The notes under the pieces are model-generated. The model worked only from the letters and a program-made list of their open reading frames with translations. It had not been told where the DNA came from and did no database searches. The position numbers and the translations under genes were made by a program. A DNA stretch of 64,000 nt, taken from a virus. Shown here in pieces: positions 1,947-47,000 of the stretch. Numbering within the stretch: the stretch's first letter is position 1; each line of letters starts with the position of its first letter. The DNA lies in the UHGV virus genome UHGV-0279745; one strand, written 5' to 3'.

Positions 1947-3098
1947 ATGCGAAATATTATTTCTAAGCCAGGACATGCCAAGATCCTAAAAGAACTGATG
2001 GACAGATGCTATAATCGGACTTGGTCACTACCAAGCTTAACCATCGAGTCTTCATTACAACGTGAGTTGTTTGGTTATAACTTGGGCTGTTGTGTACTTA
2101 GTGAATACAACCAGGTTATCGCGCCTGTCGATGTCTGTACTTCCGATGAAGAAATTGAAGGTTACCAGTTCACAGCTTACACAAATTGTGGACTAAATTA
2201 CCGTAAACTCGTTGTTAGGGAAATGAGTAGCAACCGGAAGATTATGTTTAAGGTCTTCCCAAGTGGTAAAGTCAGTAATTTATGTTTTCAGCTTGAGAAA
2301 GTGCCCTTTCACGGTGCAGCCATTTTAACTAAACCAGAACTCCTGTTATTAAGCGGGTTAATTGGCTTTGAAGTAAAAACCATCAAAGTTGAGCAGGAAC
2401 TTACACGAAACGATTTCGGCTCAACTTGGTACGAAAGTTTCTTCCGCTACGAAATGTTAAGTGATAAAGCTATCAAACTCACTTACCGTTCTACCGACGA
2501 CATCGTTTACCACATTTTAATTAGCGGCGAACCCCACCAGATTATTGAAGTCGGAGGAGAAAAATCCGTGCGTACCTTAAAAGATGAATTAACTGATTTT
2601 GTTAACAAAATTGATAACGTGGGTATCAGTGAATTATTGTTCCCGATTCAACATCCAGAGCTGCTTGACGAGAAATCTGAAAACGTGGTTATGGGTGTGC
2701 ATTTACTTCCTGACCATCTTGCTATCTACCGTACACTTTCTAAGAATCAACTTAAAGTGTGGTGCCTGTTAAAAGACCTTTTAACAGAGGCGGGGTGGTC
2801 GTGTAGTGTAGATGTTAACTGTGAAGGAGTTGCGTTCTTCATCACAATAGGCAATCGTAGTTTTTCTGTCGATTTACCTACTCGCAGCTATTACAATTTC
2901 TTCCCGACCGCAGAAGGACGTACTGAAAAAGAACCCGCATTACTGCTCAGTGCTGAGGAGTCCAATGCGTTAATGGCGAAACTAAAGGCGAAAGACGAGA
3001 AGCTGGATGCTTTACATCTACCTATAATCGGGAAAGACTACGGTTGGGCTGACGTGCAAAAATACGGCAGTCAGCTGTTGTTTGTTGCTGACCTTTAA
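1947..3098 (+). CDS. hypothetical protein, paralog family A member 3
   Basis: ORF track; RBS ctaaaggag; C-terminal GWADVQKYGSQLLFVA motif. Confidence 0.65.
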   Translation: MRNIISKPGHAKILKELMDRCYNRTWSLPSLTIESSLQRELFGYNLGCCVLSEYNQVIAPVDVCTSDEEIEGYQFTAYTNCGLNYRKLVVREMSSNRKIMFKVFPSGKVSNLCFQLEKVPFHGAAILTKPELLLLSGLIGFEVKTIKVEQELTRNDFGSTWYESFFRYEMLSDKAIKLTYRSTDDIVYHILISGEPHQIIEVGGEKSVRTLKDELTDFVNKIDNVGISELLFPIQHPELLDEKSENVVMGVHLLPDHLAIYRTLSKNQLKVWCLLKDLLTEAGWSCSVDVNCEGVAFFITIGNRSFSVDLPTRSYYNFFPTAEGRTEKEPALLLSAEESNALMAKLKAKDEKLDALHLPIIGKDYGWADVQKYGSQLLFVADL

Positions 3099-6891: not shown

Positions 6892-7281
6892 ATGCGTCTC
6901 GTCTGCGTTTTAGCATTCTTCTTCTCCCTGAGTGTAGCAGCATCTACTCAAGTTAACGATTTACTGCTAACCCCAAACAACAATACCGATTACCAGTACA
7001 ATCCTCCGGGGTTTGAAGTTTGTGAAGTCGGTGAAACAATCTGCCAAGAAGTCGGCGCAGACGGGCGCTATATTCTGGTAAAAGCTGATGGTGGCACAAT
7101 GTGTCCCGCAGGTTATTACTTTCTGCTCGATTCCGTCGCAAGAGAGGTTCTTCCTATCACCACGAAAACGTGCGACCCTACCGTTGTCTTAACTCTCGCT
7201 AAAAGCAAATCTCGCGACCGTTATCTGATCGTTATCGAAGAACGGGGCAAGATGGCTGGTGCTATCGAATTAGATCATTGA
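6892..7281 (+). CDS. small secreted cysteine-containing protein
   Basis: ORF track; signal peptide ending AAS; 4 Cys. Confidence 0.65.
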   Translation: MRLVCVLAFFFSLSVAASTQVNDLLLTPNNNTDYQYNPPGFEVCEVGETICQEVGADGRYILVKADGGTMCPAGYYFLLDSVAREVLPITTKTCDPTVVLTLAKSKSRDRYLIVIEERGKMAGAIELDH

Positions 7282-7289
7282 GTGTAGTC

Positions 7290-7320
7290 TTGGCCCCGAT
7301 ACGTTCGGGGTCCTTTTTAC
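7290..7320 (+). terminator. intrinsic terminator
   Basis: ggccccga/tcggggtcc hairpin plus T-run. Confidence 0.6.
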
Positions 7321-7347
7321 GACATGTTTACCTAAAGGAGTATTAAA

Positions 7348-7824
7348 ATGCAATTATCTAACGTTTACCAAGCTGCGCAATTTCATCATGACCTGTCGGC
7401 TAAACCTGAACAAATTCGCCACAACTTAACGGTGGCCTGGAAACTGCTGCGTATCGCCGAAGCCTCGCGCCTTAACGATCAGTCGACGATTATCGAAACG
7501 GTGCGCACACTACATCCAGTCGACCTGGAAACAATCTGGACCTTTGATTTAACCCGAATTTATCACCGTCGTTTTAATGCGGCAGTTGATGCGATCCGTC
7601 CTTACTTTCACCACCTGCGGACAACACGCGAAAATGACACTGCACTTGAATGGGTATTGGTACAAAGCGTATGGAGCGACTACATTTATCTCCTTTCTTT
7701 AGAGACGGGTGAATGTATCGTTGCTAACGAAGTTTTTTCAAGTAACGCAGAAATGTATCGTTCCTTCGCGACGATTAAAGGTGAAACACAACCTATTTTA
7801 TCACTCACGCACTTAGGGCTGTAA
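7348..7824 (+). CDS. hypothetical protein
   Basis: ORF track; RBS cctaaaggagtattaaaatg. Confidence 0.65.
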   Translation: MQLSNVYQAAQFHHDLSAKPEQIRHNLTVAWKLLRIAEASRLNDQSTIIETVRTLHPVDLETIWTFDLTRIYHRRFNAAVDAIRPYFHHLRTTRENDTALEWVLVQSVWSDYIYLLSLETGECIVANEVFSSNAEMYRSFATIKGETQPILSLTHLGL

Positions 7825-7827
7825 TTA

Positions 7828-7861
7828 GCCCGGCCCCGTTTACTCGGGGCTTCTTTTTTTG
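7828..7861 (+). terminator. intrinsic terminator
   Basis: gccccg/cggggc hairpin plus T8. Confidence 0.65.
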
Positions 7862-7880
7862 ATCTAAAAGGAAAGACCAG

Positions 7881-8489
7881 ATGAACGAAATTACATTAGT
7901 TCGTTTTCTTGAAGCGATGCAAAATGCAGAGCGCTTTTCGCATACGCCTTTATTCATTGACTTAATGGAAGAAGAAGTAGAGGGATTCCTGGCATACCCT
8001 CGCTTACGGGAATATTTTAAACGTAAAACACCGACTGCTTACGAAAAGTTGGTTTACGCGCTTGAGAACAGTACAACATTGTTAACGTCACCTTTTAAGG
8101 CGTTGGAGGCTTTAGACCCGGCTGGTACCACAAGTATCCCACAACGTGTCGTGTTCTACTATATCGACCACGATCGAATCAAAGCCGATGTTGTTAACTG
8201 GATCTCTGAAAACGCAGTTCCTGAAACACGCACTTTTAATCTCTGTCCTGTAGAAGAAGGGTGGAAGGTCGGTAGCCACTATTCTTACCCGTACCAATCC
8301 ATTAAATCGCCGTTTTTATACCCGGTTTATCTGGATGACGTTACACCTGGAAATTGTATCCCGGTAACAAATCTGATCTGTACATTGACGATGGAAGTCT
8401 TAGCCACAAAGGCGGGACAGGTTTGGGTAGAAAACACGAAGAACGTCGATTATTGGACTTCAATGGGTTATCACCTGTACACCAAATAA
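7881..8489 (+). CDS. hypothetical protein
   Basis: ORF track; RBS aaaggaaaga. Confidence 0.65.
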   Translation: MNEITLVRFLEAMQNAERFSHTPLFIDLMEEEVEGFLAYPRLREYFKRKTPTAYEKLVYALENSTTLLTSPFKALEALDPAGTTSIPQRVVFYYIDHDRIKADVVNWISENAVPETRTFNLCPVEEGWKVGSHYSYPYQSIKSPFLYPVYLDDVTPGNCIPVTNLICTLTMEVLATKAGQVWVENTKNVDYWTSMGYHLYTK

Positions 8490-8492
8490 CGT

Positions 8493-8540
8493 TTGGGAGA
8501 ACCTTCGGGTTCTCCCTTTCTTTATTTTTTTTTCTTTTTA
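8493..8540 (+). terminator. intrinsic terminator
   Basis: gggagaacc-ttcg-ggttctccc hairpin plus long T-run. Confidence 0.7.
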
Positions 8541-8569
8541 CACCACACTCCGTCTTTATGGAGGTGGGT

Positions 8570-11074
8570 ATGCTAAAAGTTGAACGGATTATACTCAAAG
8601 GTTTTACGGGGATGGGATTACATGAAATTGAAACCTTCGATTTCACTATCCAGTCTCCGACAACAATTATCCTGGGTGGGAACGGCTGCGGGAAAACCAG
8701 TCTACTGTCTGTGTTCCTACCCTTAGCACCGGCTAAAACCGAATTCAGGGACGGCGGTTCTTACACAAACTACTGTTTAGTTGGCGATCAACGCTATCGT
8801 TTCAAAGTTGCCCGTAAAGGCAACTCTTTGGTTTGCGATATTGAGAACCTGACCACGGGGGCAAAGATCGTCGAGCAAGGTAATGCGAAAGTCTACAACT
8901 CCCGTGTTGAAGAAATCACAGGTATTACAAAAGAGATTAAAGAATTATTAAATGGTGAGGTGTTGTTAACCGATGCGGGAACCGAATTACGCCGCAAATG
9001 GTTTTACCGTTTAAGTACCTCTGATCTCACTTACGCGTTAGGGTTTTATCAACGTTTACGTAAAAACCTTACTGCCTTAAATGGGGGTATTGAAATCACC
9101 AGCCGTAAGATCGCCGAATTACGGACGCGTGTTATTGAGAACGAGGAAGAACGGCAGCAGTTAGCGACGAGATTAAAAGGTTTGGAATCGGATTTACGTG
9201 AACTGAACCGAGAAATCGAACAGTTACCAGGATTAAATCGTGCCGTCACCATCGAAACAATCCAAGCGTTATTAAACAGCTTGGGTCCAACCATCGACGC
9301 AATATTACAACATCGTGGTGGATTGCCTACTGATGAACAGATACTGGCCGCGCGACAAAACGAAGCGACGGCCCGCGAAGCCGTCGTGTCTACTGAAACA
9401 GAGGTATCGATGTTGAATAAAGACTTGTCGCTACTGATGGATGAGTCGACACGACAAGACTACCTGATGCGGAATCACGAAGGTCTCAAGAATACACTGG
9501 CACGTTTACGTGAGTTACTTACCAAATGGGACACCGAGCATCTCTTTCCGGGTTTATTTAACGACAACATCAATTTAGACCAACTTCGTGCGGCTACCGA
9601 CGCGCGTGTTTGGGGGCAACGGTTAGGAACAACACTGGACGCAATTCATTCAACCGAAAAACTTAATGTTTTGGAAGAACGGCTTCTGGTGATGGATCAA
9701 AAAACCGCAGGGTTGCGGGATAGACTCCAGCGAGTGGAGAACGTTTTACAGAATTTAAATCACGAACGTAATCACTACTTAGAAACAGCGGAAGTGGATT
9801 GCCCGCAGTGTCGGTTTAAGTTCCGTCCTGGCGTTACGCGTTCTTTACCTGAACTTGAGTCTTCGATTCGCGGACAACAACAGCAGCGCACGGAACTGCA
9901 AACGCAGTTAGAGACTCTATTACGCGATCGTGTTGAGTTAGAATCCGATGTAACTTATATGCGGCAGGTTCGTGAGATTGTACTGACGTATTCAAAGGAC
10001 CCGGTATTGAGCATGTTCTTTAAGCGTTTGCAAGAACGTAACGTTTTCACAGAATCACGTGAACAGTTCGGGAGTCTATGCGCAGCGTTTGACAGTGAGT
10101 TGTACTCTGCTATTGAGTACCATGAAACCCGTCAACGGTTAGTGAAGGCGGAAAAAGAATGGCAGGATGCCGTGGCGGCCGTTGGTAACGTCGATGGTGC
10201 TTTACAACAGAAAATTGCTTTCCAACAGTCACGATTAGGTAAAGCCACAGAGATGCTCTCAATGCGTCGTAGAGAGTACGAACTGGCTAACACGACACTT
10301 ACCTATCTGGTGAATGTTAAACGTGCTGTAGATGATTTCAGTGCGTTATTCGAACGGTTAGAGAGTGATGTTAAGGTTACGTTGACAAATACGGTCGTCG
10401 AGGAACTCTTACGTGCACGAGAAGGGAAGCTGGATGCTTTTACAACCGCACGCGAACGTTATCGTCAGATGGAAAATGAATTGAATCAGCTCAACAGTTT
10501 GGAACGCGAACTTGCTGACTTACAAGCCCAGCAATTCAATAACAAACTGATGATTCAAGCCTTCTCTCCAGAAAAGGGTGTACTTAGAAAGTATTTTTAC
10601 AACGCTATCGTTAGAATCACAGAGTTAATGACGCGTTATATCGAACAGGTCTGGACGTACCCCATGCGCGTTATGCCTTGTGACCTCACTGACGGCGATT
10701 TGGATTATACTTTTCCTGTCCAGCTAAAAACGCATCCTGAGCCTGTTCCTGACGTGCGTAAAGGGTCTAAGGCGCAGCGTGCGATATTTAATCTGATGTT
10801 CAGGCTGACTGCGTACAAAGCGCTGAAGTTGCATCAGTTTCCGTTGCTTTTGGATGAGCCTTCGGAAGGCATGGATGAGGAGCACCGTAACAACCTGGTC
10901 GGTTTTATTAAAACGTTAGCAAACTCGGGAGAATTTTCCCAACTGTTGGTAGTCTCCCACGAAGCCGAGGTTCATTCTAAACTTAATGAAGCATCGTACT
11001 GTGTCATCGAACCGGAAGGGGTGACATTGCCTGCGGTGTATAACGAAGGAGTAAAAATTGTTTATGCAAACTGA
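8570..11074 (+). CDS. SbcC/Rad50-like recombination ATPase
   Basis: Start moved to ATG 8570 (RBS GGAGGTGGG, downstream of terminator); Walker A GGNGCGKTS, long coiled-coil middle, CPQC zinc hook, C-terminal LLDEPSEGMD. Confidence 0.7.
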   Translation: MLKVERIILKGFTGMGLHEIETFDFTIQSPTTIILGGNGCGKTSLLSVFLPLAPAKTEFRDGGSYTNYCLVGDQRYRFKVARKGNSLVCDIENLTTGAKIVEQGNAKVYNSRVEEITGITKEIKELLNGEVLLTDAGTELRRKWFYRLSTSDLTYALGFYQRLRKNLTALNGGIEITSRKIAELRTRVIENEEERQQLATRLKGLESDLRELNREIEQLPGLNRAVTIETIQALLNSLGPTIDAILQHRGGLPTDEQILAARQNEATAREAVVSTETEVSMLNKDLSLLMDESTRQDYLMRNHEGLKNTLARLRELLTKWDTEHLFPGLFNDNINLDQLRAATDARVWGQRLGTTLDAIHSTEKLNVLEERLLVMDQKTAGLRDRLQRVENVLQNLNHERNHYLETAEVDCPQCRFKFRPGVTRSLPELESSIRGQQQQRTELQTQLETLLRDRVELESDVTYMRQVREIVLTYSKDPVLSMFFKRLQERNVFTESREQFGSLCAAFDSELYSAIEYHETRQRLVKAEKEWQDAVAAVGNVDGALQQKIAFQQSRLGKATEMLSMRRREYELANTTLTYLVNVKRAVDDFSALFERLESDVKVTLTNTVVEELLRAREGKLDAFTTARERYRQMENELNQLNSLERELADLQAQQFNNKLMIQAFSPEKGVLRKYFYNAIVRITELMTRYIEQVWTYPMRVMPCDLTDGDLDYTFPVQLKTHPEPVPDVRKGSKAQRAIFNLMFRLTAYKALKLHQFPLLLDEPSEGMDEEHRNNLVGFIKTLANSGEFSQLLVVSHEAEVHSKLNEASYCVIEPEGVTLPAVYNEGVKIVYAN

Positions 11075-11243
11075 TTGGTTCCGTCGTATTGTGGATGCGG
11101 TAGGGTTTGGCTTCATGTCCATTTTAGCGGTTCTTTATGTCATGTTTTGTGTGGTGATGATTTTATGGGTAGTTTCATCTTATCTGATTAAACTATCGTG
11201 GGGTTCAATTTGGCGTCAACGCGAATGCGAATGGCGGAATTAG
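11064..11243 (+). CDS. small membrane protein (59 aa), translationally coupled to the SbcC-like gene
   Basis: ATG at 11064 with GAAGGAG RBS inside the 3' end of the upstream gene; one hydrophobic helix. Confidence 0.5.
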   Translation: MQTDWFRRIVDAVGFGFMSILAVLYVMFCVVMILWVVSSYLIKLSWGSIWRQRECEWRN

Positions 11244-11253
11244 GAGAGGGAAT

Positions 11254-11352
11254 ATGGTTGTAGGGGTTCTGTTAACACTTGGCTCGTTGTGGTTAATTGG
11301 TAAAGGTTTAAACTGGCTGATTAAACGTCACCGTTGGGCGTTCGAAGATTAA
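11254..11352 (+). CDS. tiny membrane protein (32 aa)
   Basis: GGAGAGGG RBS then ATG; MVVGVLLTLGSLWLIGKG... single TM helix; not in ORF track. Confidence 0.3.
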   Translation: MVVGVLLTLGSLWLIGKGLNWLIKRHRWAFED

Positions 11353-11409
11353 CCACCCAAATAATCCAGAAGATACCCTCCGGTGTGAGGGTATTGACAG
11401 GAGCAGAAA

Positions 11410-11538
11410 ATGACCACGATAAACGCTACGAATGTAGCGATATCCGCACTATACGACGCGGAACTTTCATGGGGTGGATTAATAATCACCACAGCCATAT
11501 TAGCCGCTGCGGCTTTCGTCATCGCGCGTTGGTTTTAA
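11410..11538 (+). CDS. tiny membrane protein (42 aa)
   Basis: CAGGAG RBS then ATG; hydrophobic C-terminal helix; not in ORF track. Confidence 0.3.
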   Translation: MTTINATNVAISALYDAELSWGGLIITTAILAAAAFVIARWF

Positions 11539-11569
11539 TTTTACTTTTTTGCGTCTCTAAGGTTTGCAA

Positions 11570-12013
11570 ATGGAAATTTATTTGTTGAACGCATCTTCTA
11601 AAGTCGGTGAGCGACAAGCTGCCGATTTACTCAAACTACACTACCGTTACTTAGACCACCAGGCCACGTTACTGAAAATCAAAATGTCGGTGCCGAAGTT
11701 AAATGCGCGACAGCTGATCGAAGGTAACTGCATAGTTCTGGTGTATCAGGATGATGTCGCGGTAGGATACTGTAGTTATCGGAATCGTAACGGCTCACTT
11801 AAGATACGTTCGGTATACGTGCTCCCAGACCATCGTCAACGGGGTGTAATGAAAGAGATTTTCAAAGCAATTGCAGCTGATGAAGTTTTCGGCGAGATTG
11901 TTACTGGCATGTATGCGAAATGTAAAGAAGCAAAAGAGTATTTCATCCGACGCGGCTATCAGGCGGTTTACTCACGCGATCGTGAGTGGGTCGATTTTAG
12001 CAAAACATTCTAA
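11570..12013 (+). CDS. GNAT-family N-acetyltransferase (putative)
   Basis: ATG at 11570; GNAT motif A-like VLPDHRQRGVMKEIF. Confidence 0.55.
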   Translation: MEIYLLNASSKVGERQAADLLKLHYRYLDHQATLLKIKMSVPKLNARQLIEGNCIVLVYQDDVAVGYCSYRNRNGSLKIRSVYVLPDHRQRGVMKEIFKAIAADEVFGEIVTGMYAKCKEAKEYFIRRGYQAVYSRDREWVDFSKTF

Positions 12014-12079
12014 AAACAATAAAGCTCTCTTGGCGTACCTCACTATGAGTGTGAGAAATTTACGTCAGGAGAGCTAATT

Positions 12080-12325
12080 ATGTTAAAATCGTACGGAGTG
12101 GGTGGTTTGGATACGAGTATTTGTTGGAAAGAATACGAACGTGCGAAAGCGTTCTTACAGCATCCCAATGTGGGGACAATAGGTAAGGTCTGTTTCGGCA
12201 AACCTTCACTGACGGCTTGTATCCAAGGGGCTTTAGGGACGTTGCCACCCGAAACACATTTCGAGCCTGAGGAGAATATGAATGTTCACAGAGAACCCAT
12301 CAATTTACGGCATACCGTTGAATGA
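12080..12325 (+). CDS. hypothetical protein
   Basis: ORF track; RBS caggagagc; overlaps next gene by 44 nt. Confidence 0.45.
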   Translation: MLKSYGVGGLDTSICWKEYERAKAFLQHPNVGTIGKVCFGKPSLTACIQGALGTLPPETHFEPEENMNVHREPINLRHTVE

Positions 12326-12650
12326 AATTGATATTCTGCAAATTTGTTATCAGTGCGGCGACTTCGGTAAGACACAAGTAACGCCGTTAGTTAAGCTTTT
12401 AGGTTACTTGCCTGAAATCGAGTTACCTTTTGTTAAACCTAGCTTAGTTCGTCGCGCATCGTGTCGCGAAGCTTATTTGCTCTGGAAACACAATATTTCA
12501 GTAGAGAAGGTCTGGGACCGTATGAACGATCATCAGTTCCGTGAGCAGGTCGTGCACACGCTTAACTTGGCACTGACTATGCAACGCCTGGGCTTACAAC
12601 ACGAGGGTTTAGAAGCGGCGGTCAAGCAATGGATTACGAAAAATCGATAA
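12282..12650 (+). CDS. hypothetical protein
   Basis: ORF track; RBS gaggaga. Confidence 0.5.
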   Translation: MFTENPSIYGIPLNEIDILQICYQCGDFGKTQVTPLVKLLGYLPEIELPFVKPSLVRRASCREAYLLWKHNISVEKVWDRMNDHQFREQVVHTLNLALTMQRLGLQHEGLEAAVKQWITKNR

Positions 12651-12737
12651 TGGGTAAAACATATATCGCTATACTTGTCGAGCTATCAATCGGCGGTACA
12701 CGTTTTAATACTACACATCAACTCCGGGCGTTTCGTT

Positions 12738-13235
12738 ATGTTAACGGTACGTAAAGAATCTGAAATTGGTAACGATCTTTTTAATGCGCCCGAAGACTAT
12801 AAAGTCGTTACCATTAATTGCGTAGGAGCGATGGGTCGCGGTATTGCACTCGCGTGTCGTGAACGCTACCCCAACCTTTACCAGGATTATCGTAAGCGGT
12901 GTCGTGAAAACGAAATTAAGATTGGAAACGTTTACGTTTACTCTGACGAAAAGTGTATCTTGCTCCCCACGAAAACCCATTGGCGCTTAAAGTCCCAGGT
13001 TTCTTATGTTACTGCGGGCATTACCGCACTAGCGGATTGTGCTGAGGATCTGGATACCAGCGTTGCTATCCCTCCACTGGGAATGGCAAACGGGTGGTTA
13101 GATTCCTGGGAAAGACAAGAAATCTTTTTGTGGCTTTACAAAAAACTTGAATCAAGGAGACAACACTACACGTTATACTTACCTGATAAGTTGTACCAAG
13201 AAGCAGAGTCATTAATTCCAAACTCTTTTAAATAG
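12738..13235 (+). CDS. macro-domain-like protein (tentative; ADP-ribose binding/processing fold)
   Basis: ATG 12738 preferred over TTG 12675; motif VTINCVGAMGRGIALA resembles the macro-domain glycine-rich loop; assignment from motif only. Confidence 0.4.
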   Translation: MLTVRKESEIGNDLFNAPEDYKVVTINCVGAMGRGIALACRERYPNLYQDYRKRCRENEIKIGNVYVYSDEKCILLPTKTHWRLKSQVSYVTAGITALADCAEDLDTSVAIPPLGMANGWLDSWERQEIFLWLYKKLESRRQHYTLYLPDKLYQEAESLIPNSFK

Positions 13236-13253
13236 ATATTATCATTAGGGCAC
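13234..13253 (+). promoter_or_regulatory. candidate promoter-like element, variant class (agatattatcattagggcac)
   Basis: Shares the AGATAT..TTATC core with two other intergenic sites and resembles the early motif. Confidence 0.25.
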
Positions 13254-13335
13254 ACAACAAAGGAGTATTAGCTGTCCGCGCCGTCATTTCGTCTTACGGA
13301 ATACGGAAATGTATAAATCCAACTGGAGAAACAAA

Positions 13336-14034
13336 ATGTTTCGTATCTTCTTTCTTTTACTGGTAACACTTTTCGCGTTTAACGCACAGGCGTCAACGTC
13401 AACGCCACATTCTAAGCATCAGCGTGAGTTTGCACAAATCCAACATCGGTTCGAAAAAGTCAGCCCGTTAATTGTGGAAATCTCACGAAAGCAGGGCGTT
13501 GATCCCAAGCTGATGATTACGCTGATTTATCGTGAATCGCGTTTTGATCCCAAGGCTTACAACAAAAGCTCACGAGCACATAGCCTGGTACAAATGCTTC
13601 CAAGTACCAAACGTAATCTGCTAAAGCTTTATGGAAAAGAATTAGGTCTTAGTCAGAACGCCGATTTGTATAATCCGCGCAACGCTGTTTTGCTGGCTAC
13701 CGCGTATGTTAAACATCTTGAGAAGGGGTTAACCAAACGACTCAAACGCAAGCCCACCATGGCTGAAATTGCGTTAGCTTACCACTGGGGTGAAAGTGGC
13801 GCTCACACGCGAATCAAAAGCAAATCTCGAGCAGCACAACGAGAAATGGCAGGCTTTATGAAAGACGCCGCGTTCTATAGCGCGAAAATCGATGTGCCTG
13901 TTGTTGTGGGCTCGGCCCCACGTCAGCTTGCGTTTGCGAAGAAAACACCACGTCAGATTCAACTGGCGGAAGTTAGTAGAATTTGGGATACGATAAACAC
14001 GAGTTTTCCAATCAATAGAGGAGTTACCCTTTGA
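13336..14034 (+). CDS. secreted lytic transglycosylase (SLT domain)
   Basis: ATG 13336 with GGAGA RBS; signal peptide MFRIFFLLLVTLFAFNAQA; SLT motif ESRFDPKAYNKSSRAHSLVQMLPST. Confidence 0.6.
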   Translation: MFRIFFLLLVTLFAFNAQASTSTPHSKHQREFAQIQHRFEKVSPLIVEISRKQGVDPKLMITLIYRESRFDPKAYNKSSRAHSLVQMLPSTKRNLLKLYGKELGLSQNADLYNPRNAVLLATAYVKHLEKGLTKRLKRKPTMAEIALAYHWGESGAHTRIKSKSRAAQREMAGFMKDAAFYSAKIDVPVVVGSAPRQLAFAKKTPRQIQLAEVSRIWDTINTSFPINRGVTL

Positions 14035-19810: not shown

Positions 19811-20545
19811 ATGACCTACCCAAAAATTGTCACCCCGTACACACCGACGCTGGTTATTGGTGCTGATGCTGAAACCAAATCATTACGCCCCGATGCTTAT
19901 CTGTTAAGTGCGGGTTTAGTGGCTTTTGACGTCCCTACATTGAAAATGGTCGGTTCCTCATACATCAGGATCGATCCTAACGATCCTAAAGCAAAAGCCA
20001 TTTTCCACGAAGACCCACAAACCGTTGGTTGGTGGGAAGGTAAAGGCGAACCCGAATACGCACCGTCTCGTGAAGCCTATGCGGAAGCATGGGGTGGGAC
20101 GACAGCATTGCCAGACGCGCTCTGGGCGATGCAAAAATGGCTCGGGGAGATCACCGCAAAACACGAGTTTGTGATTACCATGCGTGGTCCTGACTTCGAT
20201 GCGCCGATTTTCATGAACGCATTCGCACAATGTGATATTCCGCCAGGGAAGTTCCGTAAATTCAGTGCACTGGATAGCGATCGTACCGCAGAACGTTTAG
20301 CCTTTGCATTTGGGTTCGAGCCTGACCTAACCGTAGAGCAAATTTACTGGACACGCGGTAAGCCCGCTTTTGAGCACCACGCTATGTGGGATGCGGCAAA
20401 AGAAGCCTACACCACGGCACGTATTTACCACCTCGCTTTGGTCACTCGCCAATACGGGTTTGAACGCGCCAAAGCCTGTCACGAAGAACTGAAAACGGGC
20501 GAGTATGTTGCGCCGCAGATTCGTGATCAATTAACCAGGGATTAA
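19811..20545 (+). CDS. DnaQ-like 3'-5' exonuclease (DEDDh)
   Basis: Exo I GADAET, Exo III HHAMWDA motifs; RBS caggagaa. Confidence 0.6.
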   Translation: MTYPKIVTPYTPTLVIGADAETKSLRPDAYLLSAGLVAFDVPTLKMVGSSYIRIDPNDPKAKAIFHEDPQTVGWWEGKGEPEYAPSREAYAEAWGGTTALPDALWAMQKWLGEITAKHEFVITMRGPDFDAPIFMNAFAQCDIPPGKFRKFSALDSDRTAERLAFAFGFEPDLTVEQIYWTRGKPAFEHHAMWDAAKEAYTTARIYHLALVTRQYGFERAKACHEELKTGEYVAPQIRDQLTRD

Positions 20546-20547
20546 GA

Positions 20548-22068
20548 ATGAAGAACGTTGATGTTGCAGTAATTTACACGGATGGTAGCCATTTGACCTC
20601 CCCGCTCGGTACAGGAGCGGGGATTCATGGATACTTATTTAATCGTGAAGCGATTGAGGATGGTCGGGTTTACCGTCATCCCTCTATTCCCGAGGGGATT
20701 ACGACGTCAGGATACCGCCAGATAAACAAGGATGAAAAACTTCCACCTTTACCAGAAACCGTGGAGTTTATTGACGGTGTTGTGCCTGTACCAAAAATGT
20801 CACACTCCGACGTTGCAGAACTCGTGGCTTTCCTGACCGTCTTCGAACACGCACCTTTCGTTGCCAAAAACTATGTTATCTATATCGATGCCTCTTACGT
20901 TGTCAACACGTATAACGATTGGATTGATGGTTGGGCTGCACGCGGTTGGCGTCGTGCAGACGGTACGCCTATTGCGAACTTGGAATTAATCCAACGGATG
21001 TGGGAGGTTAAACAGCGGTTAAAGAAAGAAGGGAAAGGTATTCGTGTCCTTAAAATTAAAGGGCACTCAGGACGCTATGGAAACGAGCGTGCCGACGAGT
21101 TAGCACGGAAAGGTTCAAGTATTTCGGCTCGAGGTGAGGGGTTAGACTATACACCGTATTGGTCAAAAGACGAGATGCCTGAGGAAGAACAGCAACCAGA
21201 AGTTGTTGGTGAAGGTGTCAATTTGTCTGCTTTTCCCGATATCTGTGTTACGAAGTTCTGTTACCCGATGGTGAACGAACCGCATCCCACTGTTACAGTT
21301 AACGGTAATAAACTTTATTACATGTTCGGTGGGAACCATGCAAAACAGAAGGACGATATCGTCTTCGTTGGTAAGTACATTCCAGATGCACAATTCTGCG
21401 TAATGTTTACCAAAGAACCATGGAACAACGTATACGAGTTGGTAAATACCCACTCTGCGAAAGCGTGGGAAGGGGTGCCCCGTTTACGTCAGTTTGATCC
21501 CATTGCCGTTGTTTTTAACTTATTCGTAAAACGTAAGAAGTTCGCAGAAGCCGCAGGTAACGGTATTCCTGTCGATCGGATGCATTTTAGCGAAGACAAA
21601 AACCTGTGGATGTTTGAAGATCTTTCGATTACACGAATTCTTCGTCCCGCGTTATTGTCTTATCGCTGCATTACGATTCGTGATGAGCTTGCAGGTTGGT
21701 TACGCGATGCCATGGAGGGGAAAAACTCAGTCGTAATGAACGACATTACTGACCTGCTTTACGATGAGAAAGGTAAGCCGAAGAAAGACTTTTATCGTAA
21801 CGTAGATAAAGGTTTTGACGTAACTATCCATATCCCTGGTAGTAAAAACAAGGTTAAAACCATCCTTACTCGAGGTATCGACATACCGACGCGTACGGAA
21901 ATCAACCGTATGAAAGAACCAGAAGGACGATTCTACGTGGCGGTACGGCGTCCAGAACGGCAGTATATCGAGTACGCGTTGGTTTATATTGGGGAAAAAT
22001 ATCATGGGTTGTGGTGTGGCTATTATTCAAACAAACGAATATTGACGGATAAGGAGCTTGAATGCTGA
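20548..22068 (+). CDS. RNase HI-domain protein with about 330-aa C-terminal extension
   Basis: N-terminal RNase H motifs YTDGS ... YIDASYV ... HSGRYGNERADELA; 506 aa total. Confidence 0.65.
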   Translation: MKNVDVAVIYTDGSHLTSPLGTGAGIHGYLFNREAIEDGRVYRHPSIPEGITTSGYRQINKDEKLPPLPETVEFIDGVVPVPKMSHSDVAELVAFLTVFEHAPFVAKNYVIYIDASYVVNTYNDWIDGWAARGWRRADGTPIANLELIQRMWEVKQRLKKEGKGIRVLKIKGHSGRYGNERADELARKGSSISARGEGLDYTPYWSKDEMPEEEQQPEVVGEGVNLSAFPDICVTKFCYPMVNEPHPTVTVNGNKLYYMFGGNHAKQKDDIVFVGKYIPDAQFCVMFTKEPWNNVYELVNTHSAKAWEGVPRLRQFDPIAVVFNLFVKRKKFAEAAGNGIPVDRMHFSEDKNLWMFEDLSITRILRPALLSYRCITIRDELAGWLRDAMEGKNSVVMNDITDLLYDEKGKPKKDFYRNVDKGFDVTIHIPGSKNKVKTILTRGIDIPTRTEINRMKEPEGRFYVAVRRPERQYIEYALVYIGEKYHGLWCGYYSNKRILTDKELEC

Positions 22069-22730
22069 TCGTTTATAGTGAGGTCTTGTCAAAAGCCCCC
22101 CGGTTTTTACAAACTCACTTTATGTATAACGCACGGCAGTATTGGGGCTTTAAAGCCCCTTACTCCGAAGATTGGGAAGTTGTGGAAAAGTTAGCATTTG
22201 TGTTTTCTCTTTCGTTGTTGTGGGAGATCATTGCACTATACAACGCGGGTTGTGATATCCCGGAGAACGGCTTTTTCCAACAACACCTATTCCAAAAATT
22301 CACAGCATCGGTAGAAAATCATGAAGTGCGCAAGGAGTGTATCGGCTACGCAGAGCATTCTGAAGAATTGAGAAAGATTTCCAAATTAGTTATCACGCGG
22401 ACATGGGCTGAATTCGAAACTTACCCCGAAAAAATAATTTGGTTTAATCGTGAACAGTTTATTAAAGAGGCAGTCAGTCAACATCCCGTTCGACTAATCG
22501 TGTTAAAGCCGTCAGATCTCGCCTTACGCCACATCTATTCGTCTCCAGAGGAAATCGTTTTTTCCTCTGGAACAACAGATTATGGTATTTTTAAACAAGG
22601 CGATTCTTGGATTCTTCCACACGATTTAGACGGGTATTTGCTCAGTAGCGATCAAATACATTCGGGTTATGACTCACAGGTGAAGGAGTTTACAGTCGAT
22701 CCTTTTTTCGCTAAAAATATTCTTAGATAG
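22062..22730 (+). CDS. hypothetical protein
   Basis: ORF track; start overlaps upstream stop (ATGCTGA). Confidence 0.55.
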   Translation: MLIVYSEVLSKAPRFLQTHFMYNARQYWGFKAPYSEDWEVVEKLAFVFSLSLLWEIIALYNAGCDIPENGFFQQHLFQKFTASVENHEVRKECIGYAEHSEELRKISKLVITRTWAEFETYPEKIIWFNREQFIKEAVSQHPVRLIVLKPSDLALRHIYSSPEEIVFSSGTTDYGIFKQGDSWILPHDLDGYLLSSDQIHSGYDSQVKEFTVDPFFAKNILR

Positions 22731-28190: not shown

Positions 28191-29687
28191 ATGGCAGGCC
28201 CAACTAAGCAAGTTATCGGTGAAGTAATTCGTCCACGTTTTAACGTTTACACCATCATGGATCATGCCTTAGGTAACTACGAAAAAGGTGAAGATGGTTT
28301 GTACTACCTTAACGGTGGTTTTGCCCACATCATGGGTTTCGCAGGTCGCGGTAACACTTTTAAATCCACCTTGTTAGATTTCTGTATCTTCCAAATCCTG
28401 CAACGTTATAAAGCAGAGTGGGGTTCTAAGTACGATACAGAAGTGTCCGCTGCCCTCGATCGTTTAGAAACTGGGTACATCTCTGCCATGAACGCCAACG
28501 GTATCGACGACGGAACATCTGTACTGGAGCTTATCCACGAAGGTCGTTATAACCTGGTCGGTTCTGACGTAATGCCTGGGGAACAGTATTACAGTGATTA
28601 TATTCGTGATGAAGTTGAAAAACGCTTCAAACAGTATATGTCTGGTAAGACCCGTGTAACACCGTTCCCCGATCCGGTTCGTCGTAAGTTAAAAGAAATC
28701 CTGGACCCCTGGCTTTATTCTATCGACTCCCTGTCAGAGTGGCATTCCAGTTCGCTGGAAGACAAACACGCAAAAACGGATATCGGGGATTCTGATCAGA
28801 ACATCCTGAACGCCCACGACGCACTGCAAAAATCGAATATGATGAGCCGCTGGCCGTCTGCGTTTGCACGCGGCGGTTTTTACATGGGCTTCGTGGCACA
28901 GATGGCCGATGACTCTGGGAAAGCGATGGCGGGTGGCCGACAGGCTCAAAAAGCAAATGCGAAAATTCTCGACGACGCCAACGACGATTTAAAATTCGCA
29001 GGTATTCCTCGACGTCAGCTTAGCTTTTTAACAAACTCTTTTATCGTCGCGACGAAATCAGGTGAGCTGAAGAAAGACCAGAGCTATAACGCACAGACCG
29101 GTGTTAACGAAGAACTTTATCCGACGTCACGTTCTAAAGCGATGAATGCGTCGGTAAACGACTTGAAGATTATCACCTTTACCCAGTATCGTGCGAAGGG
29201 TGGTCACACCGGTGTGAAATTCCAGATGATCTTCTCTCAGGAAATGGGTCTGTTGTATCACCTGAGCCTGTGGCATTATTTAAGTGACACGCTGAAGAAG
29301 TCAGACTTTGGTTTCACATCAAGCGGTAGTGGAGGTTCCATCAAAGAACTTGACATTCTACCTGGTGTGAAATTCCAACGCACGACAATCCGTGATATGA
29401 TTTCTGATAACGCACGCTTACGTCGCGCTTTAGAAATCACTGCGGCAATTGCGTATATGCAAAACAACTACCATCGTCTTGAAATGAAGTATCATCTCAG
29501 CATGGGTGAGATTTACAAACTGATTGACGAGAAGTGGGACTGGAATGAAATTCTGGATAACACGGTAGAATACTGGATGTTTAAAGACCAGGAAACCAAA
29601 GGCGGTAAACGTACACTGACTGCACGTACCATTCTGGGTATGGCTGTTGATGGGCTAGAACCGAAGTTCCTGACGAAAAAGAAATAA
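28191..29687 (+). CDS. RecA/UvsX-family ATPase (putative recombinase)
   Basis: Walker A-like FAGRGNTFKST and Walker B-like LYSIDSL, which I recall as resembling the T4 UvsX motifs; longer than typical UvsX. Confidence 0.45.
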   Translation: MAGPTKQVIGEVIRPRFNVYTIMDHALGNYEKGEDGLYYLNGGFAHIMGFAGRGNTFKSTLLDFCIFQILQRYKAEWGSKYDTEVSAALDRLETGYISAMNANGIDDGTSVLELIHEGRYNLVGSDVMPGEQYYSDYIRDEVEKRFKQYMSGKTRVTPFPDPVRRKLKEILDPWLYSIDSLSEWHSSSLEDKHAKTDIGDSDQNILNAHDALQKSNMMSRWPSAFARGGFYMGFVAQMADDSGKAMAGGRQAQKANAKILDDANDDLKFAGIPRRQLSFLTNSFIVATKSGELKKDQSYNAQTGVNEELYPTSRSKAMNASVNDLKIITFTQYRAKGGHTGVKFQMIFSQEMGLLYHLSLWHYLSDTLKKSDFGFTSSGSGGSIKELDILPGVKFQRTTIRDMISDNARLRRALEITAAIAYMQNNYHRLEMKYHLSMGEIYKLIDEKWDWNEILDNTVEYWMFKDQETKGGKRTLTARTILGMAVDGLEPKFLTKKK

Positions 29688-44049: not shown

Positions 44050-47000
44050 TTACGCCGATTTACGACTAACGTCGAGTTGTGGCGCTGGTTGGGTTATTGA
44101 CACGTTACGTGACGCCGAACCCGGAGCGGTTGACGCAGGGTTAGCCGGTCCGTTTTGCATAGCCTGTGGTCGCTGACGAAGAATTGTTACAATCTCTTTC
44201 AGGTAGCCCGCAGACTCTTTTGCAACCGCCAGCTGCTGTACGCTGATCGGATCACCGCTGTTCACTGTAGAGCCGGTCTGTGCATCGGAAGTTACTGTTG
44301 GTGCAGGGCGGACTGATTTCTCCATCTGCTGTCTAGCACCTTCTTTTACTTTAGCAACATCCTCTTCGGCCAGGCCGTCAGCACGAGCATTTTGACCCAC
44401 CGTATCTACAACAACTGACGCATCACTCGGTGTCACGTCGCCGCCGGGGCTCGGCACCGCCGGACCACCGCCCGTCGCAGCTTTAATGTCATCGGCCCCC
44501 ATTGCACCTTTATCTGCTAAGGCTGTGTCACGATTCGCCTCGTTCGCAGCTGGCAGGTTATCTGCCGGGCCTGTGATGGACGGATCGTTAGCAGCGCCCG
44601 CAGCGATGGCTGGGGATGACGGCATTGGCGTTACGCCAGTCGTCAAGTCTTTCACCGATGCCTGATTGCCCGCAATTGCGTTTGTTCCTACTGCACCAAT
44701 CTTACCACCCATGATGCTGAGCACTTCATCCAAACTACGCAATTTTCCATTCTTGTAGAAAATTGTGCTGTTTGCCGCGATTTGATCGGCCGATGCACCA
44801 CGCGATGACGGACCGTTCGGATCACGCTTCCATTCTTGCAGGAATTTCTTACCGCCACCTTGTCCTAAGAAGTGGTAGAGGTAAACTGCCGCACCGGGAG
44901 GATCGATGCCACCTAAATCCTTTCTGGCTTTCTCGATATTGTCACGAATATGGCGGACACCAAGCAGGGCATTCGCCCACGGGTCATACTGGTCGGTTTG
45001 CGGGATACCGTAACGTCTAGCGTAAGCTTTCATCTGCTCACTCCAGGTACCGTTGATGAACTGGAACAAGCCAGCTGCAGAACTTCCTTTAGCTTTGATG
45101 CCGTATCTAAGTCCTGATTCTGCTTGTGCCATTCCCAGCGCTAACGCTGGAGGAACACCCATCATCTTCGCTACGTCTATAATCAGTGCTGCGACCGCAT
45201 TCAGGTTAGGCTTCAATCCGTCACCCAACGTTGAAATTGGATACTTAGCCGCTAACGTTTTATAATCACCGTCTTGCATCTCGCCAAGCTTCACACCGAA
45301 GTTACCGGTACTAAACGCGGCGTAATTCTTAGCCCCCATCTGACCATAAGCACCAGCCAAATCGTTTGGCGTGCCGTAATTACCACCGTCATTCGCTGCC
45401 GGTTGAAGCAGATCGCGATAAGAGGAGGAAGTATTCATCTGTTGCCGAGGTGGTTGGTCCTTCTCGTCATCGGTCAAGAACATCTGAGTCGCACGATCTT
45501 TTCGCTGCCAGTTCACACGGAAACCAGCAGAAGGCGTAGCACGCAGCGTTTTACGTACTGCCAAATCAGCTTCCTTAGACAGTTCTTTCAGGTTCTCTAA
45601 CTCCGTTGCAACTGAACCAGCGTCAGTGTTAGCATCACCCCCTAACGGGTTAAACGGTACCTCCCACACCGATTGGCGAATACCCCCTTTCAGGTTGTAC
45701 GCACCACGCATCATCAGTGCGATTTCATACAAGAACCCGCCTGTAACGCGTAGGTCCATCGGATCGGCAGCAGGGACATAACGTTTCACCCCAACCACGT
45801 ACGTCATGAAGACAGGTAAGAAGCGGTTATAGAACCAGTTCTTGTACCGATCTTCTTTTGGTCCACCAATAGCGTCAGGTGCAATCACTGCAATCGCACG
45901 TTTCCAGTCTCCTTTATACGTACAACTTTTCACATCAGTGTCTTGCAACACTTGACGTTCTAGGAGCGTATAGAGGTTACGGGTTGTTTGAGTAATGCTC
46001 ACCGCACCATAAGCTTTCAACCTTACAGATTCCAAATCACGGAGATCGGTTTCTTTAGGTAAGCTTCTCCAGTCAACTTGAACCTGAACTTGTTCGGTGC
46101 CGTCTTCCCAACCTTCAACCTTTGCAACCTCTTTGTTGCGTTCCGCATCCGCTTGAGCCAACGCTTGGGTCGATTCCGCCACAGAAGCAACTTTGTGTCC
46201 TTCGGCCACGCTGCCCGTAGCATTTACATCCTTACGTTTTTCATCACGACGCATGTTAATCGAACGAAGCACGCGTTCTTGTGCTTCAACGACTTCTTCA
46301 CCTGACAAAAACTCGGCCGGGGTAAACGTTACGAAATCCCACGCTTTAGAGAACCAACCTTGGTTAACCTTGCGGGGGTCTTCTAATGCACGGAATGCAG
46401 GTGCGTCTTTCGACATCTTCATTTTGTTAAAGATGTTCAACATGTCTGCTTTCGACACTTTCGCTGGATTACCGACGTCTGCTAACGCGATATCGTTATC
46501 CATCGATTTCAGTGCCGTAATCCAACGTAAGTAAATAGGCACAAAACGTTGTAGCATAAACGCACTAAACGCCAGCATTTCGCCTTTGTCTTCTACGTTA
46601 GTACCAAACCCTTCGGCCAGTTTCTTCACATCGTCACCAGACAAACCACGCAGCTGCGCTTGACCGTTCTCTGTATAAGAGATATACGGTTTCAAGTTGT
46701 CTTCTAAATAACGTGCTTTTGCACCGTCGTCGGAAGACCATTCATCATGGTCTCTAAAACCGTACTGCGCCAATCGCATGTTATCTAGGTACTGGGCATT
46801 TACACGATCTTTAGTTTTATAATAAAACCACGTTAACCCTGCGCCAGCGGCTACCAAACCGATAATCGGCCAGCCAACCGCAGTTACCACTGCAGATGCA
46901 GCTGTCGCGACAGCACTCACCGCAGGGACAGCCAAACGGGTCACGGCAAACTTACCAACGTTCCACAACGCTTTGCCTGCAAATCCGACCGGCTTGAAGA

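Follow-up and report, generated by a model that had tools for sequence, protein, structure and literature searches.

Within a 64-kb stretch of phage DNA (the window), positions 8570..11074 of the + strand encode a predicted SbcC/Rad50-type ATPase of 834 aa, the ortholog of SPN3US gp186 and phiKZ gp165; the hairpin, the promoter-like element, the small 3′ ORF and the UvsX-like gene described below lie on the same strand. The gene starts at ATG 8570. The same methionine opens 13/13 aligned orthologs, and it is preceded by a ribosome-binding site (GGAGGTGGGT; 8560..8569), read from the sequence, and by a terminator-like hairpin, so that the limits 8570..11074 assigned in an earlier, sequence-only reading of this DNA were right. 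An ORF lister gave a longer version of the gene (8354..11074) with a TTG start at 8354. We dismissed this start, since the extension takes in the terminator-like hairpin as well as the last part of the gene before it, and is absent from every ortholog.

The hairpin, GGGAGAACC-TTCG-GGTTCTCCC followed by a T-run (8495..8516), was identified by a terminator scan and lies between the SbcC gene and the upstream gene at 7881-8489. In an alignment, hairpin and T-run are conserved 5′ of the SbcC gene in seven relatives, with stem sequences that vary between clades. Conservation also points to a possible phage-RNAP promoter at 8538..8560, in which TTAC is found ~20 nt 5′ of a TATG at 8557-8560: across eight aligned upstream regions of SbcC the TATG is invariant, and the T-run and TAC are mostly kept (TAC in 7/8 rows). 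In phiKZ, late promoters have a TATG whose G is the +1 position; the motif of middle promoters is AAanTTACc, at around -24 (PMC4666361). The TTAC...TATG element 5′ of SbcC is thus a possible candidate for a phage-RNAP promoter. Bracketed by the conserved terminator and this promoter-like element, SbcC appears to form its own transcription unit in the clade of this phage.

At its 3′ end, the SbcC stop codon is overlapped by a small ORF (11058..11243; 61 aa from TTG, or 59 aa from ATG 11064) with one predicted transmembrane helix (Kyte-Doolittle maximum 2.82 over aa 22-40). This ORF matched phrog_16515 at 6.6e-5, and its counterparts are Asesino gp208 and SPN3US gp187, the latter noted as a TM protein (PMC5105663). 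It is probably co-transcribed with SbcC, and its product is probably a 61-aa single-pass membrane protein co-translated with SbcC. Anchoring or gating of the SbcC complex by such a protein would be odd in a phage that keeps its DNA inside a protein-shelled nucleus.

The SbcC/Rad50-type identity with a zinc hook, proposed in the sequence-only reading, is borne out by database searches: the whole protein matched PHROG_77 ‘SbcC-like’ at 4.7e-91, and its top solved-structure matches were Rad50 heads, with both lobes aligned (1.3e-5 in a single-sequence search). In a PDB profile search, the SbcC ortholog profile matched P. furiosus Rad50 at 4.9e-14. The best Pfam match was SMC_N (2e-8), which spans aa 4-808 but at 34.3 bits is under the cut-off of 40, and the best NCBIfam match was Rad50 (1.6e-11), at 43 bits far under the cut-off of 847. 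With these curated cellular models below cut-off, the family assignment is based on motifs, on profiles and on families specific to phages. A weak Pfam PIN_12 match (aa 589-682, E 0.028) was put down to coiled-coil noise.

The protein has a split ABC ATPase head, with an N-terminal Walker A and C-terminal signature, Walker B, D-loop and switch histidine. Residues given in the following description are invariant in 13 orthologs. The Walker A/P-loop, GGNGCGKTS, lies at 8675..8701 (aa 36-44; N38, G39, G41, K42). The signature-like motif, GSKAQ, lies at 10763..10777 (aa 732-736; S733), and is aligned with S-x-G-Q of 5da9, the signature of Rad50. It is followed by the Walker B, LLLDE, at 10844..10858 (aa 759-763; D762, E763), by the D-loop, SEGMD (aa 765-769; D769), which together with the Walker B occupies 10844..10876, and by the H-loop/switch histidine motif, VVSHE, at 10949..10963 (aa 794-798; S796, H797). 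Between the two halves lies the zinc-hook motif, CPQC, at 9800..9811 (aa 411-414; C411, P412, C414). Only 29 columns are invariant across the 13 orthologs, which share 17-87% identity; the ATPase and hook residues are among them, and the CPxC hook is kept in 13/13 orthologs, down to 17% identity. The motifs therein appear to be conserved beyond chance. The Walker A, long coiled coil and C-terminal DE motif reported earlier are all present, as GGNGCGKTS, the two arms described below and LLLDE; the earlier hook at about 9793..9810 is real, with its exact position corrected to 9800-9811.

Two predicted coiled-coil arms flank the hook: an N-terminal (ascending) arm at 9017..9781 (~aa 150-404) and a C-terminal (descending) arm at 9848..10651 (~aa 427-694). 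Both were placed from composition, a low-confidence model and PDB profile matches, and their limits are approximate. The arms are of similar length (~255 and ~268 residues) and of heptad-type composition: E/K/R/Q/L/A make up 53% of residues in aa 151-410 and 415-690, and Pro+Gly content is low (6.5% and 4.3%, respectively). In a single-sequence AlphaFold model of low confidence (pLDDT 41.7), helices cover aa 105-404 and 427-694 and leave ~20 non-helical residues between the arms, around the CPQC hook. The ortholog profile also found matches in the coiled-coil parts of SMC2 and human RAD50, and in coiled coils designed to be antiparallel. By analogy with solved Rad50/SbcC complexes, the two arms would pack in antiparallel fashion.

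The match to SMC2 arms, the rank of SMC_N as top Pfam match, and the GenBank labels of relatives (‘SMC domain-containing protein’ or ‘Smc’) would also suit an SMC/condensin-type organiser that compacts or segregates phage DNA. We consider this very unlikely. The invariant CPxC hook, a hallmark of Rad50/SbcC, is at the apex in a non-helical stretch of ~20 residues, probably too short for a globular SMC hinge domain, and Pfam returned no hinge match. Moreover, the head best matches Rad50, a dedicated Mre11-type partner co-occurs (see below), and no kleisin-like partner was seen.

The window belongs to a phiKZ-like (Chimalliviridae-type) jumbo phage. Its closest relatives are the Erwinia phages Asesino and phiEaH2 (71% aa), then Salmonella phage SPN3US (58%). 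For SbcC itself, full-length tblastn identity is 71% to Asesino gp207 and 58% to SPN3US, falling to ~21% for a member of the phiKZ group; full-length matches with at least 80% coverage were found in 141 phage records, in phiKZ-like jumbo phages. The genes around SbcC are in the same order as in Asesino (gp201-gp226) and SPLA5c, and the flanking genes are shared within the SPN3US/Erskinevirus clade. Megablast with 7000-13000 as the query found no counterpart among GenBank phages, such that the phage is known there only at the protein level; IMG/VR contigs match the window at 95-98% nucleotide identity. Published work on relatives shows the orthologs to be essential: SPN3US gp186 (SbcC) is essential, as judged from amber mutants, with gp27 being the SbcD (PMC5105663); antisense knock-down of phiKZ 165 causes a fitness defect (PMC12571901); and Tn insertions in phiKZ 165 are not tolerated in Tn-seq (PMC12676376). 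We conclude that the gene at 8570..11074, as judged from its sequence, is an SbcC/Rad50-type ATPase of predicted DNA-end-processing function that is ordinary for phiKZ-like giant phages, all of which carry one.

Among the genes next to SbcC, Pfam and PHROG scans recognised a GNAT and a macro domain, the others being unknowns. This bears on whether the gene might instead encode an SMC-like ATPase (Lamassu LmuB, PtuA or AAA_15 type) that serves in defence or counter-defence and works with some other effector, not in the processing of DNA ends. PADLOC LmuB matched the protein over aa 2-803 (1.1e-18), and there were weak matches to Pfam AAA_15 and AAA_21 and to the PtuA P-loop. However, the LmuB score is tiny next to that of PHROG_77 and is what one would expect from a Rad50-like protein, and the other PADLOC/Pfam matches of this kind are confined to the P-loop. 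No LmuA/LmuC-like or other effector gene adjoins SbcC, and the neighbours have neither a PADLOC match nor nuclease/effector domains. SbcC is also a core gene, both essential and conserved by vertical descent, and it occurs together with SbcD. A defence role is highly improbable.

The sequence-only reading had stated that no SbcD/Mre11 nuclease gene adjoins SbcC, and had named beforehand an SbcD-like domain in an adjacent ORF as the sign that would speak against this. Profile and domain scans of the neighbours revealed no such domain: Pfam and PHROG scans of the ORFs at 7348-7824, 7881-8489, 11334-11588 and 11564-12013, and of 25 further ORFs, detected no metallophosphatase. Searches of the whole window were also negative. 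A tblastn search with SPN3US SbcD against the 64-kb window gave a best E of only 0.84; an SbcD profile run against all 420 six-frame segments of the window (hmmsearch --max) gave a best E of 5.9; and the regular expression DxH...GDxxD...GNH had no match in the six-frame segments. The claim of no adjacent SbcD/Mre11 gene is therefore upheld by domain scans, tblastn and six-frame profile search alike. Since the window covers 8.5 kb upstream and 53 kb downstream of SbcC without an SbcD, the gene is not part of an operon of the gene 46-47 or sbcDC type. It should be noted that jumbo-phage SbcD is so divergent that a domain scan of the neighbours could have missed even an adjacent copy.

Two ORFs in the window were considered as SbcD and rejected. 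The first, labelled ‘endodeoxyribonuclease/exonuclease’ (244 aa) and located 9 kb downstream, proved to be an exonuclease of the DEDD (Rv2179c-like) type and not a metallophosphatase; the second, a 383-aa ORF at 1947-3098 of equal length to SbcD, has no Pfam match, and its PHROG matches are only to families of unknown function. The DEDD exonuclease (19811-20545) and an RNase H-like protein (20548-22068) are the only nuclease-like genes within ~10 kb of SbcC, and both are syntenic in Asesino and SPLA5c, which would be compatible with SbcC pairing with one of these nearer nucleases. We give this next to no credence: ~15 unrelated genes lie in the 9-kb gap, the canonical partner SbcD is encoded in the genome (see below), and no Rad50-family ATPase is known to partner with DEDD or RNase H nucleases.

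A candidate for the canonical partner was found on IMG/VR contig 3300029126_000001, which shares 97.7% nucleotide identity with the window in an 8.5-kb comparison and has the same gene order as the window at both ends of the latter (collinear). On this contig, SbcC lies at 53684-56185 and a 382-aa SbcD-like ORF at ~143104-144252, on the same strand and 86.9 kb downstream of the SbcC stop codon; by collinearity, this would place the gene ~34 kb to the right of the window. The 382-aa ORF matched PHROG_100 ‘SbcD-like’ at 1.2e-59. Pfam Metallophos was matched by 11/11 close SbcD orthologs (best 2.9e-5), with the closest copy at E ~0.03, below threshold. All five Mre11 phosphoesterase motifs (DxH, GD, G-T-x-S-H-D, HG, HxH) are invariant in 12 SbcD orthologs that share 23-73% identity. 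Against solved structures, neither a single-sequence search nor a profile of close orthologs gave a match in the PDB; only a more diverse ortholog profile did so, and 21/21 of its top 21 matches were Mre11/SbcD, including those of T. maritima, P. furiosus, E. coli and human (best 2.3e-7). Alignment of the SbcD profile with the single E. coli SbcD sequence using hhalign gave 43% probability, confined to motif V, and was given no weight here. Sequence comparison thus shows the partner gene to be a predicted Mre11-family SbcD metallophosphatase, encoded in a genome of the same species, on a collinear contig that is 97.7% identical to the window but a separate molecule.

A distant SbcD is the rule among relatives. 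Both genes were found in 12/12 related genomes checked explicitly, where they are 72-120 kb apart by the shorter way round the genome; SPN3US, Stratton and phiEaH2, for example, encode SbcC and SbcD far apart. Searches by tblastn with SbcC and with SbcD returned 290 phage records each, with nearly equal genus counts. Consistent with this, the two genes have been described as ‘drastically separated’ in SPN3US, phiKZ and relatives (Thomas et al. 2016; PMC5105663). We conclude that the split SbcC/SbcD arrangement is ordinary and already known, and that the lack of an adjacent nuclease is a trait of gene organisation and not of the protein family; the neighbouring nuclease is missing because phiKZ-like genomes have a scattered gene order, as is known.

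The sequence-only reading had left two options, a partner gene located elsewhere or no partner at all. Of these, the former proved correct, with an SbcD-like gene 86.9 kb downstream on the same-species contig, and the latter did not. If the nuclease were truly absent, SbcC would be an orphan Rad50-like ATPase that acts alone or with host SbcD, as the absence of any SbcD-like sequence from the 64-kb window might suggest. However, the window is only part of the genome: an SbcD-less 64-kb slice of a genome of ~225 kb (as judged from the length of the IMG/VR contig; 220-250 kb in relatives) says nothing on absence of SbcD from the genome. On the collinear contig of the same species the SbcD-like gene is intact and retains every catalytic motif, SbcC and SbcD are both present in the 12 related genomes, and the pair is practically universal in jumbo phages (PMC7824862). 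An orphan SbcC is accordingly a most unlikely reading.

We therefore favour, with a probability of about 90%, the interpretation that this phiKZ-like jumbo phage makes an SbcCD/Mre11-Rad50 complex for the processing of DNA ends, of which the gene encodes the SbcC subunit, with SbcD ~87 kb downstream. By inference, SbcC would form a complex with SbcD, bind zinc, contribute to resection and act within the phage nucleus. As in solved Rad50/SbcC complexes, each SbcC chain would fold back on itself and so bring together the two halves of its ABC ATPase head, one N-terminal and one C-terminal. Two chains would be joined at the apex of their ~260-aa antiparallel arms by one Zn2+ held between both CPQC motifs, and the heads would bind an SbcD nuclease dimer. 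ATP binding and hydrolysis would then clamp SbcCD on DNA ends or hairpins and license cutting and resection by SbcD, and the resected ends may supply a phage UvsX-type recombinase for recombination-dependent replication and repair. A UvsX-like recombinase gene lies at 28191..29687 (phrog_97, 1.1e-55), syntenic with the ‘UvsX-like recombinase’ of SPLA5c; by analogy with the T4 pathway, its product is a likely downstream user of ends resected by SbcCD. There is a slight chance that SbcC has a second role without SbcD, such as SMC-like DNA tethering or organisation, or that the complex is anchored or gated by the small membrane protein. The correct annotation label is SbcC (Rad50-like) subunit of a phage SbcCD complex, rather than ‘orphan’; this has little significance beyond annotation.

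T5 D13/D12 are a phage Rad50/Mre11 pair, and T4 gp46/gp47 form the same predicted enzyme as that proposed here: an ABC ATPase with a coiled coil and a CxxC hook, plus an Mre11-type nuclease. In T4, gp46/gp47 start recombination-dependent replication with UvsX, and the role is probably the same here, given the UvsX-like gene in the window. The T4 genes are clustered, with two small ORFs between them, whereas those of the phage studied here are ~87 kb apart. The contrast with the adjacent pairs of T4 and T5, drawn in the sequence-only reading, is thus real, but it is not new, since published work describes the split as usual among phiKZ-like phages (PMC5105663). According to the same study, some 300 residues more than in T4 gp46 separate the two ATPase halves, and no BLASTP-level similarity to T4 is reported (PMC5105663). 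SPN3US gp186 and phiKZ gp165 resemble the SbcC of the window in length (~830 aa), invariant motifs, CPxC hook and distant SbcD, with no difference of substance.

Among cellular systems, the best structure matches were to archaeal-type Rad50-Mre11 (P. furiosus, T. maritima), at 4.9e-14 for Rad50 and 2.3e-7 over the five motifs for Mre11, although motif III of the phage SbcD reads G-T-P-S-H-D as compared to G-N-H-D in archaeal Mre11. For E. coli SbcCD (6S85, 6S6V), the C-terminus of SbcC aligns with the head motifs of the phage SbcC (hhalign, 93.5% probability), and the SbcD structures are matched by the phage SbcD profile. However, E. coli SbcC is 1048 aa long, its sequence similarity to the phage protein is confined to the motifs, and sbcD and sbcC overlap in one operon, whereas the phage genes are separate, distant transcription units. 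Lamassu LmuB has its general architecture and ABC head in common with the phage SbcC (PADLOC, 1.1e-18), but this match is ~70 orders of magnitude weaker than that to the phage SbcC family; the phage SbcC is without LmuA/LmuC neighbours, and it is an essential protein, passed on vertically, that has SbcD as its partner.

The mechanical open reading frame runs on the + strand from a TTG at 8354 to a stop at 11074, and is the sole gene of this region. Because a G+C-rich hairpin with a T-run (8495-8516) and then GGAGGTGGGT precede the ATG at 8570, and because the Met encoded there is the first residue in 13 of 13 aligned orthologs, we assign the SbcC gene to 8570..11074 (834 aa), exactly the limits proposed in the sequence-only reading. 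The longer start, TTG 8354, is ruled out by the hairpin and by the ortholog start. The upstream layout (8495-8569) is conserved across eight phages of three genera: the hairpin has a TTCG-type loop and a stem whose sequence varies by clade with pairing maintained, followed 3′ by the T-run, TTTTTAC(A/G)C and TATG. The TATG (8557-8560) is invariant in the eight phages; it lies 10 nt 5′ of the ATG in the window and ~33 nt from it in phiEaH2 and SPN3US. Promoters of the phiKZ non-virion RNAP have a TATG in which G is +1, and a middle-promoter motif, AAanTTACc, near -24 (PMC4666361); the TTAC and TATG elements upstream of SbcC resemble these.

The whole protein matches PHROG_77, 'SbcC-like subunit of palindrome specific endonuclease' (4.7e-91). 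Pfam SMC_N covers aa 4-808 (2e-8, slightly under its gathering score), Rad50 is the top NCBIfam match (1.6e-11, but far under the equivalog cut-off), and hhalign against the C-terminus of E. coli SbcC gives 93.5% probability. Among solved structures, Rad50 ATPase heads match best, with alignment over both N and C lobes, at 1.3e-5 with the single sequence and 4.9e-14 with an ortholog profile. Located in the sequence, all on the + strand, are Walker A (GGNGCGKTS, aa 36-44, nt 8675-8701), CPQC (aa 411-414, nt 9800-9811), a signature-like GSKAQ (aa 732-736), Walker B (LLLDE, aa 759-763), a D-loop (SEGMD, aa 765-769) and a switch-His motif (VVSHE, aa 794-798). Both ~260-residue flanks of the CPQC are low in Pro/Gly and high in E/K/R/Q/L/A, and a low-confidence single-sequence model (pLDDT 41.7) predicts helix at aa 105-404 and at aa 427-694 and leaves the region around the hook non-helical. 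We aligned the protein with 12 orthologs, at 87% down to 17% identity, from jumbo phages of Erwinia, Salmonella, Pseudomonas, Escherichia, Ralstonia, Vibrio, Aeromonas and Xanthomonas. Given that only 29 columns are invariant down to 17% identity, and that these include P-loop residues, C411-P412-x-C414, the signature Ser, the Walker B D-E, the D-loop Asp and the switch His, the alignment indicates a motif set beyond chance. An SMC condensin fails the hinge test, since a hook is present in place of the hinge. PADLOC returned LmuB (1.1e-18), and such weak generic matches would fit a Lamassu-type or other defence ATPase; however, Lamassu partner genes are not nearby, so we read the LmuB match as general Rad50/SMC resemblance and consider the defence reading weak. 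We retain the assignment to SbcC.

No nucleotide-level match to the SbcC region was found among GenBank phages, and full-length protein matches occur in 141 jumbo-phage records. The nearest relatives are the proteins of Asesino, Stratton and phiEaH2, all Erwinia phages (71%), and those of the Salmonella SPN3US group (58%). Gene order near SbcC parallels Asesino gp201-gp226 and SPLA5c, with a DEDD exonuclease, an RNase H-like protein, a UvsX-like recombinase, RNAP beta pieces, thymidylate synthase and a giant tail-fibre gene in common. Asesino is a nucleus-forming phage confirmed by experiment (PMC11724907); on this basis, together with the protein likeness to Asesino and SPN3US and the synteny, we assign the window to a jumbo phage that is phiKZ-like and of Chimalliviridae type.

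Several other genes of the window deserve description. A 61-aa ORF (11058-11243, +) overlaps the SbcC stop by 17 nt and matches phrog_16515, and its residues 22-40 form a single, strongly hydrophobic helix; its counterparts after SbcC are Asesino gp208 and SPN3US gp187, a TM protein (PMC5105663), whereas the annotations of Churi (phiKZ group), Goslar and RSF1 show none there. Small accessory genes follow (11564-14034, +). The one at 11564-12013 encodes a GNAT acetyltransferase and the one at 13309-14034 an SLT transglycosylase; between them, at 12675-13235, lies a gene for a macro-domain protein that matches phrog_335 'phosphatase' and is labelled Appr-1-p processing in Asesino. A 2374-aa ORF (44050-51174, -), located where G+C is raised (0.48-0.52) and GC skew is negative, is syntenic with an SPLA5c gene annotated 'tail fiber protein'.

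The sequence-only reading saw no adjacent gene for SbcD, the Mre11-type nuclease partner, and this holds for the full 64 kb. The domain search that it proposed for the two neighbours gave only a PHROG family of unknown function (7881-8489) and the GNAT acetyltransferase, and domain scans detected no metallophosphatase among 27 further window ORFs. SPN3US SbcD produced only chance tblastn matches across the window (best E 0.84), a profile HMM built from 12 jumbo-phage SbcDs and run unfiltered on every one of the 420 six-frame segments reached a best E of 5.9, and the generic pattern DxH...GDxxD...GNH has no match across the window. A DEDD 3′-5′ exonuclease (Pfam Rv2179c-like 2.5e-11; phrog_255) and, directly after it, a 506-aa RNase H-domain protein (phrog_3265, 4.2e-170) occupy 19811-22068 (+); that either nuclease is instead the partner of SbcC is suggested by proximity alone. 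The phiKZ counterpart of the RNase H protein is presumably 'RNase HI domain protein 155'. Protein 155 was strongly essential in an antisense screen (PMC12571901).

We searched for the window's own lineage in IMG/VR. A 225,000-bp contig, 3300029126_000001, encodes an SbcC with 99% protein identity, shares 97.7% DNA identity with the window across 8.5 kb, and is collinear with both window ends (602 to 45715; 62931 to 108021). It carries a 382-aa SbcD-like ORF (~143104-144252) on the same strand as SbcC; this ORF lies downstream, 86.9 kb from the SbcC stop and ~34 kb past the window's right end. Thus, of the two options left by the sequence-only reading, a partner elsewhere is borne out; true absence is contradicted, as this same-species contig and all relatives examined carry SbcD. 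Measured the shorter way round the genome from match or record coordinates, SbcC-SbcD spacing is 72-120 kb in all 12 genomes (SPN3US, Stratton, phiEaH2, SPLA1a, SPFM19, pEa_SNUABM_38, D3, RSF1, PS119XW, pEt-SU, N1M2 and the contig). tblastn with SbcC and with SbcD matched 290 phage records each, with almost identical genus counts.

The distant ORF matches PHROG_100 'SbcD-like' (1.2e-59). Pfam Metallophos is weak for this closest copy (E 0.034), but each of 11 orthologs is hit (best 2.9e-5). Across 12 orthologs with 23-73% identity, the five phosphoesterase motifs do not vary: D22-x-H24, G57-D58, G97-T98-x-x-H101-D102, H180-G181 and H212-x-H214. The 12-ortholog profile matches Mre11/SbcD structures from T. 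maritima, P. furiosus, E. coli and human (best E 2.3e-7, residues 12-244; top 21 matches all Mre11/SbcD). Narrower queries failed to reach this family, a sign of how far jumbo-phage SbcD has diverged. Motif III in the jumbo phages reads G-T-[PS]-[SD]-H-D, in contrast to canonical G-N-H-D/E, the Asn being replaced by a two-residue insertion context (T-x-S). That Asn normally contacts the scissile phosphate. The immediate surroundings of the SbcD gene are also conserved in distant phiKZ-like phages (the contig's 140113-147246 stretch, L020, and loci L041-L046): the gene sits between a ~180-220-aa ORF that overlaps its start and a ~277-aa ORF that overlaps or abuts its stop (phiKZ 064/065/066), and in L020 an RNAP beta'-type fragment with an NADFDGD motif lies just upstream. 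The antisense screen placed phiKZ 064 and 066 among the genes required for growth (PMC12571901).

By analogy with the solved Rad50-Mre11/SbcCD complexes, which both proteins match, and with the T4 genetics reviewed in PMC5105663, a pair of SbcC chains would engage their heads with ATP, extend long antiparallel arms and share one zinc at the CPQC hooks. An SbcD dimer, whose interaction with SbcC is likewise inferred, would dock onto the heads; ATP turnover, presumably inside the phage nucleus, would clamp DNA ends or hairpins and license cutting and resection. The products may then feed a UvsX-type recombinase (28191-29687, +; phrog_97, 1.1e-55), 17 kb downstream of SbcC and likely the next step in the same recombination pathway, for recombination-dependent replication.

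These features agree with known phages. In SPN3US, gp186 is the SbcC subunit, homologous to phiKZ ORF165 and essential by amber mutation, and gp27 is SbcD; the genes for this pair 'have been drastically separated' in SPN3US, in phiKZ and in their relatives (Thomas et al. 2016, PMC5105663), and lie at 168900-171407 (SbcC) and 21020-22168 (SbcD) in the SPN3US record. SbcC orthologs were required for growth in three experiments: the SPN3US amber mutant (PMC5105663), a phiKZ antisense knock-down (PMC12571901) and phiKZ Tn-seq (PMC12676376). Iyer et al. describe the pair as 'practically universally conserved' in jumbo phages (PMC7824862). We conclude that the SbcC family, its essentiality and its separation from SbcD are all already published, and that the present gene adds only one more, slightly divergent member, from a lineage represented in IMG/VR and not in GenBank.
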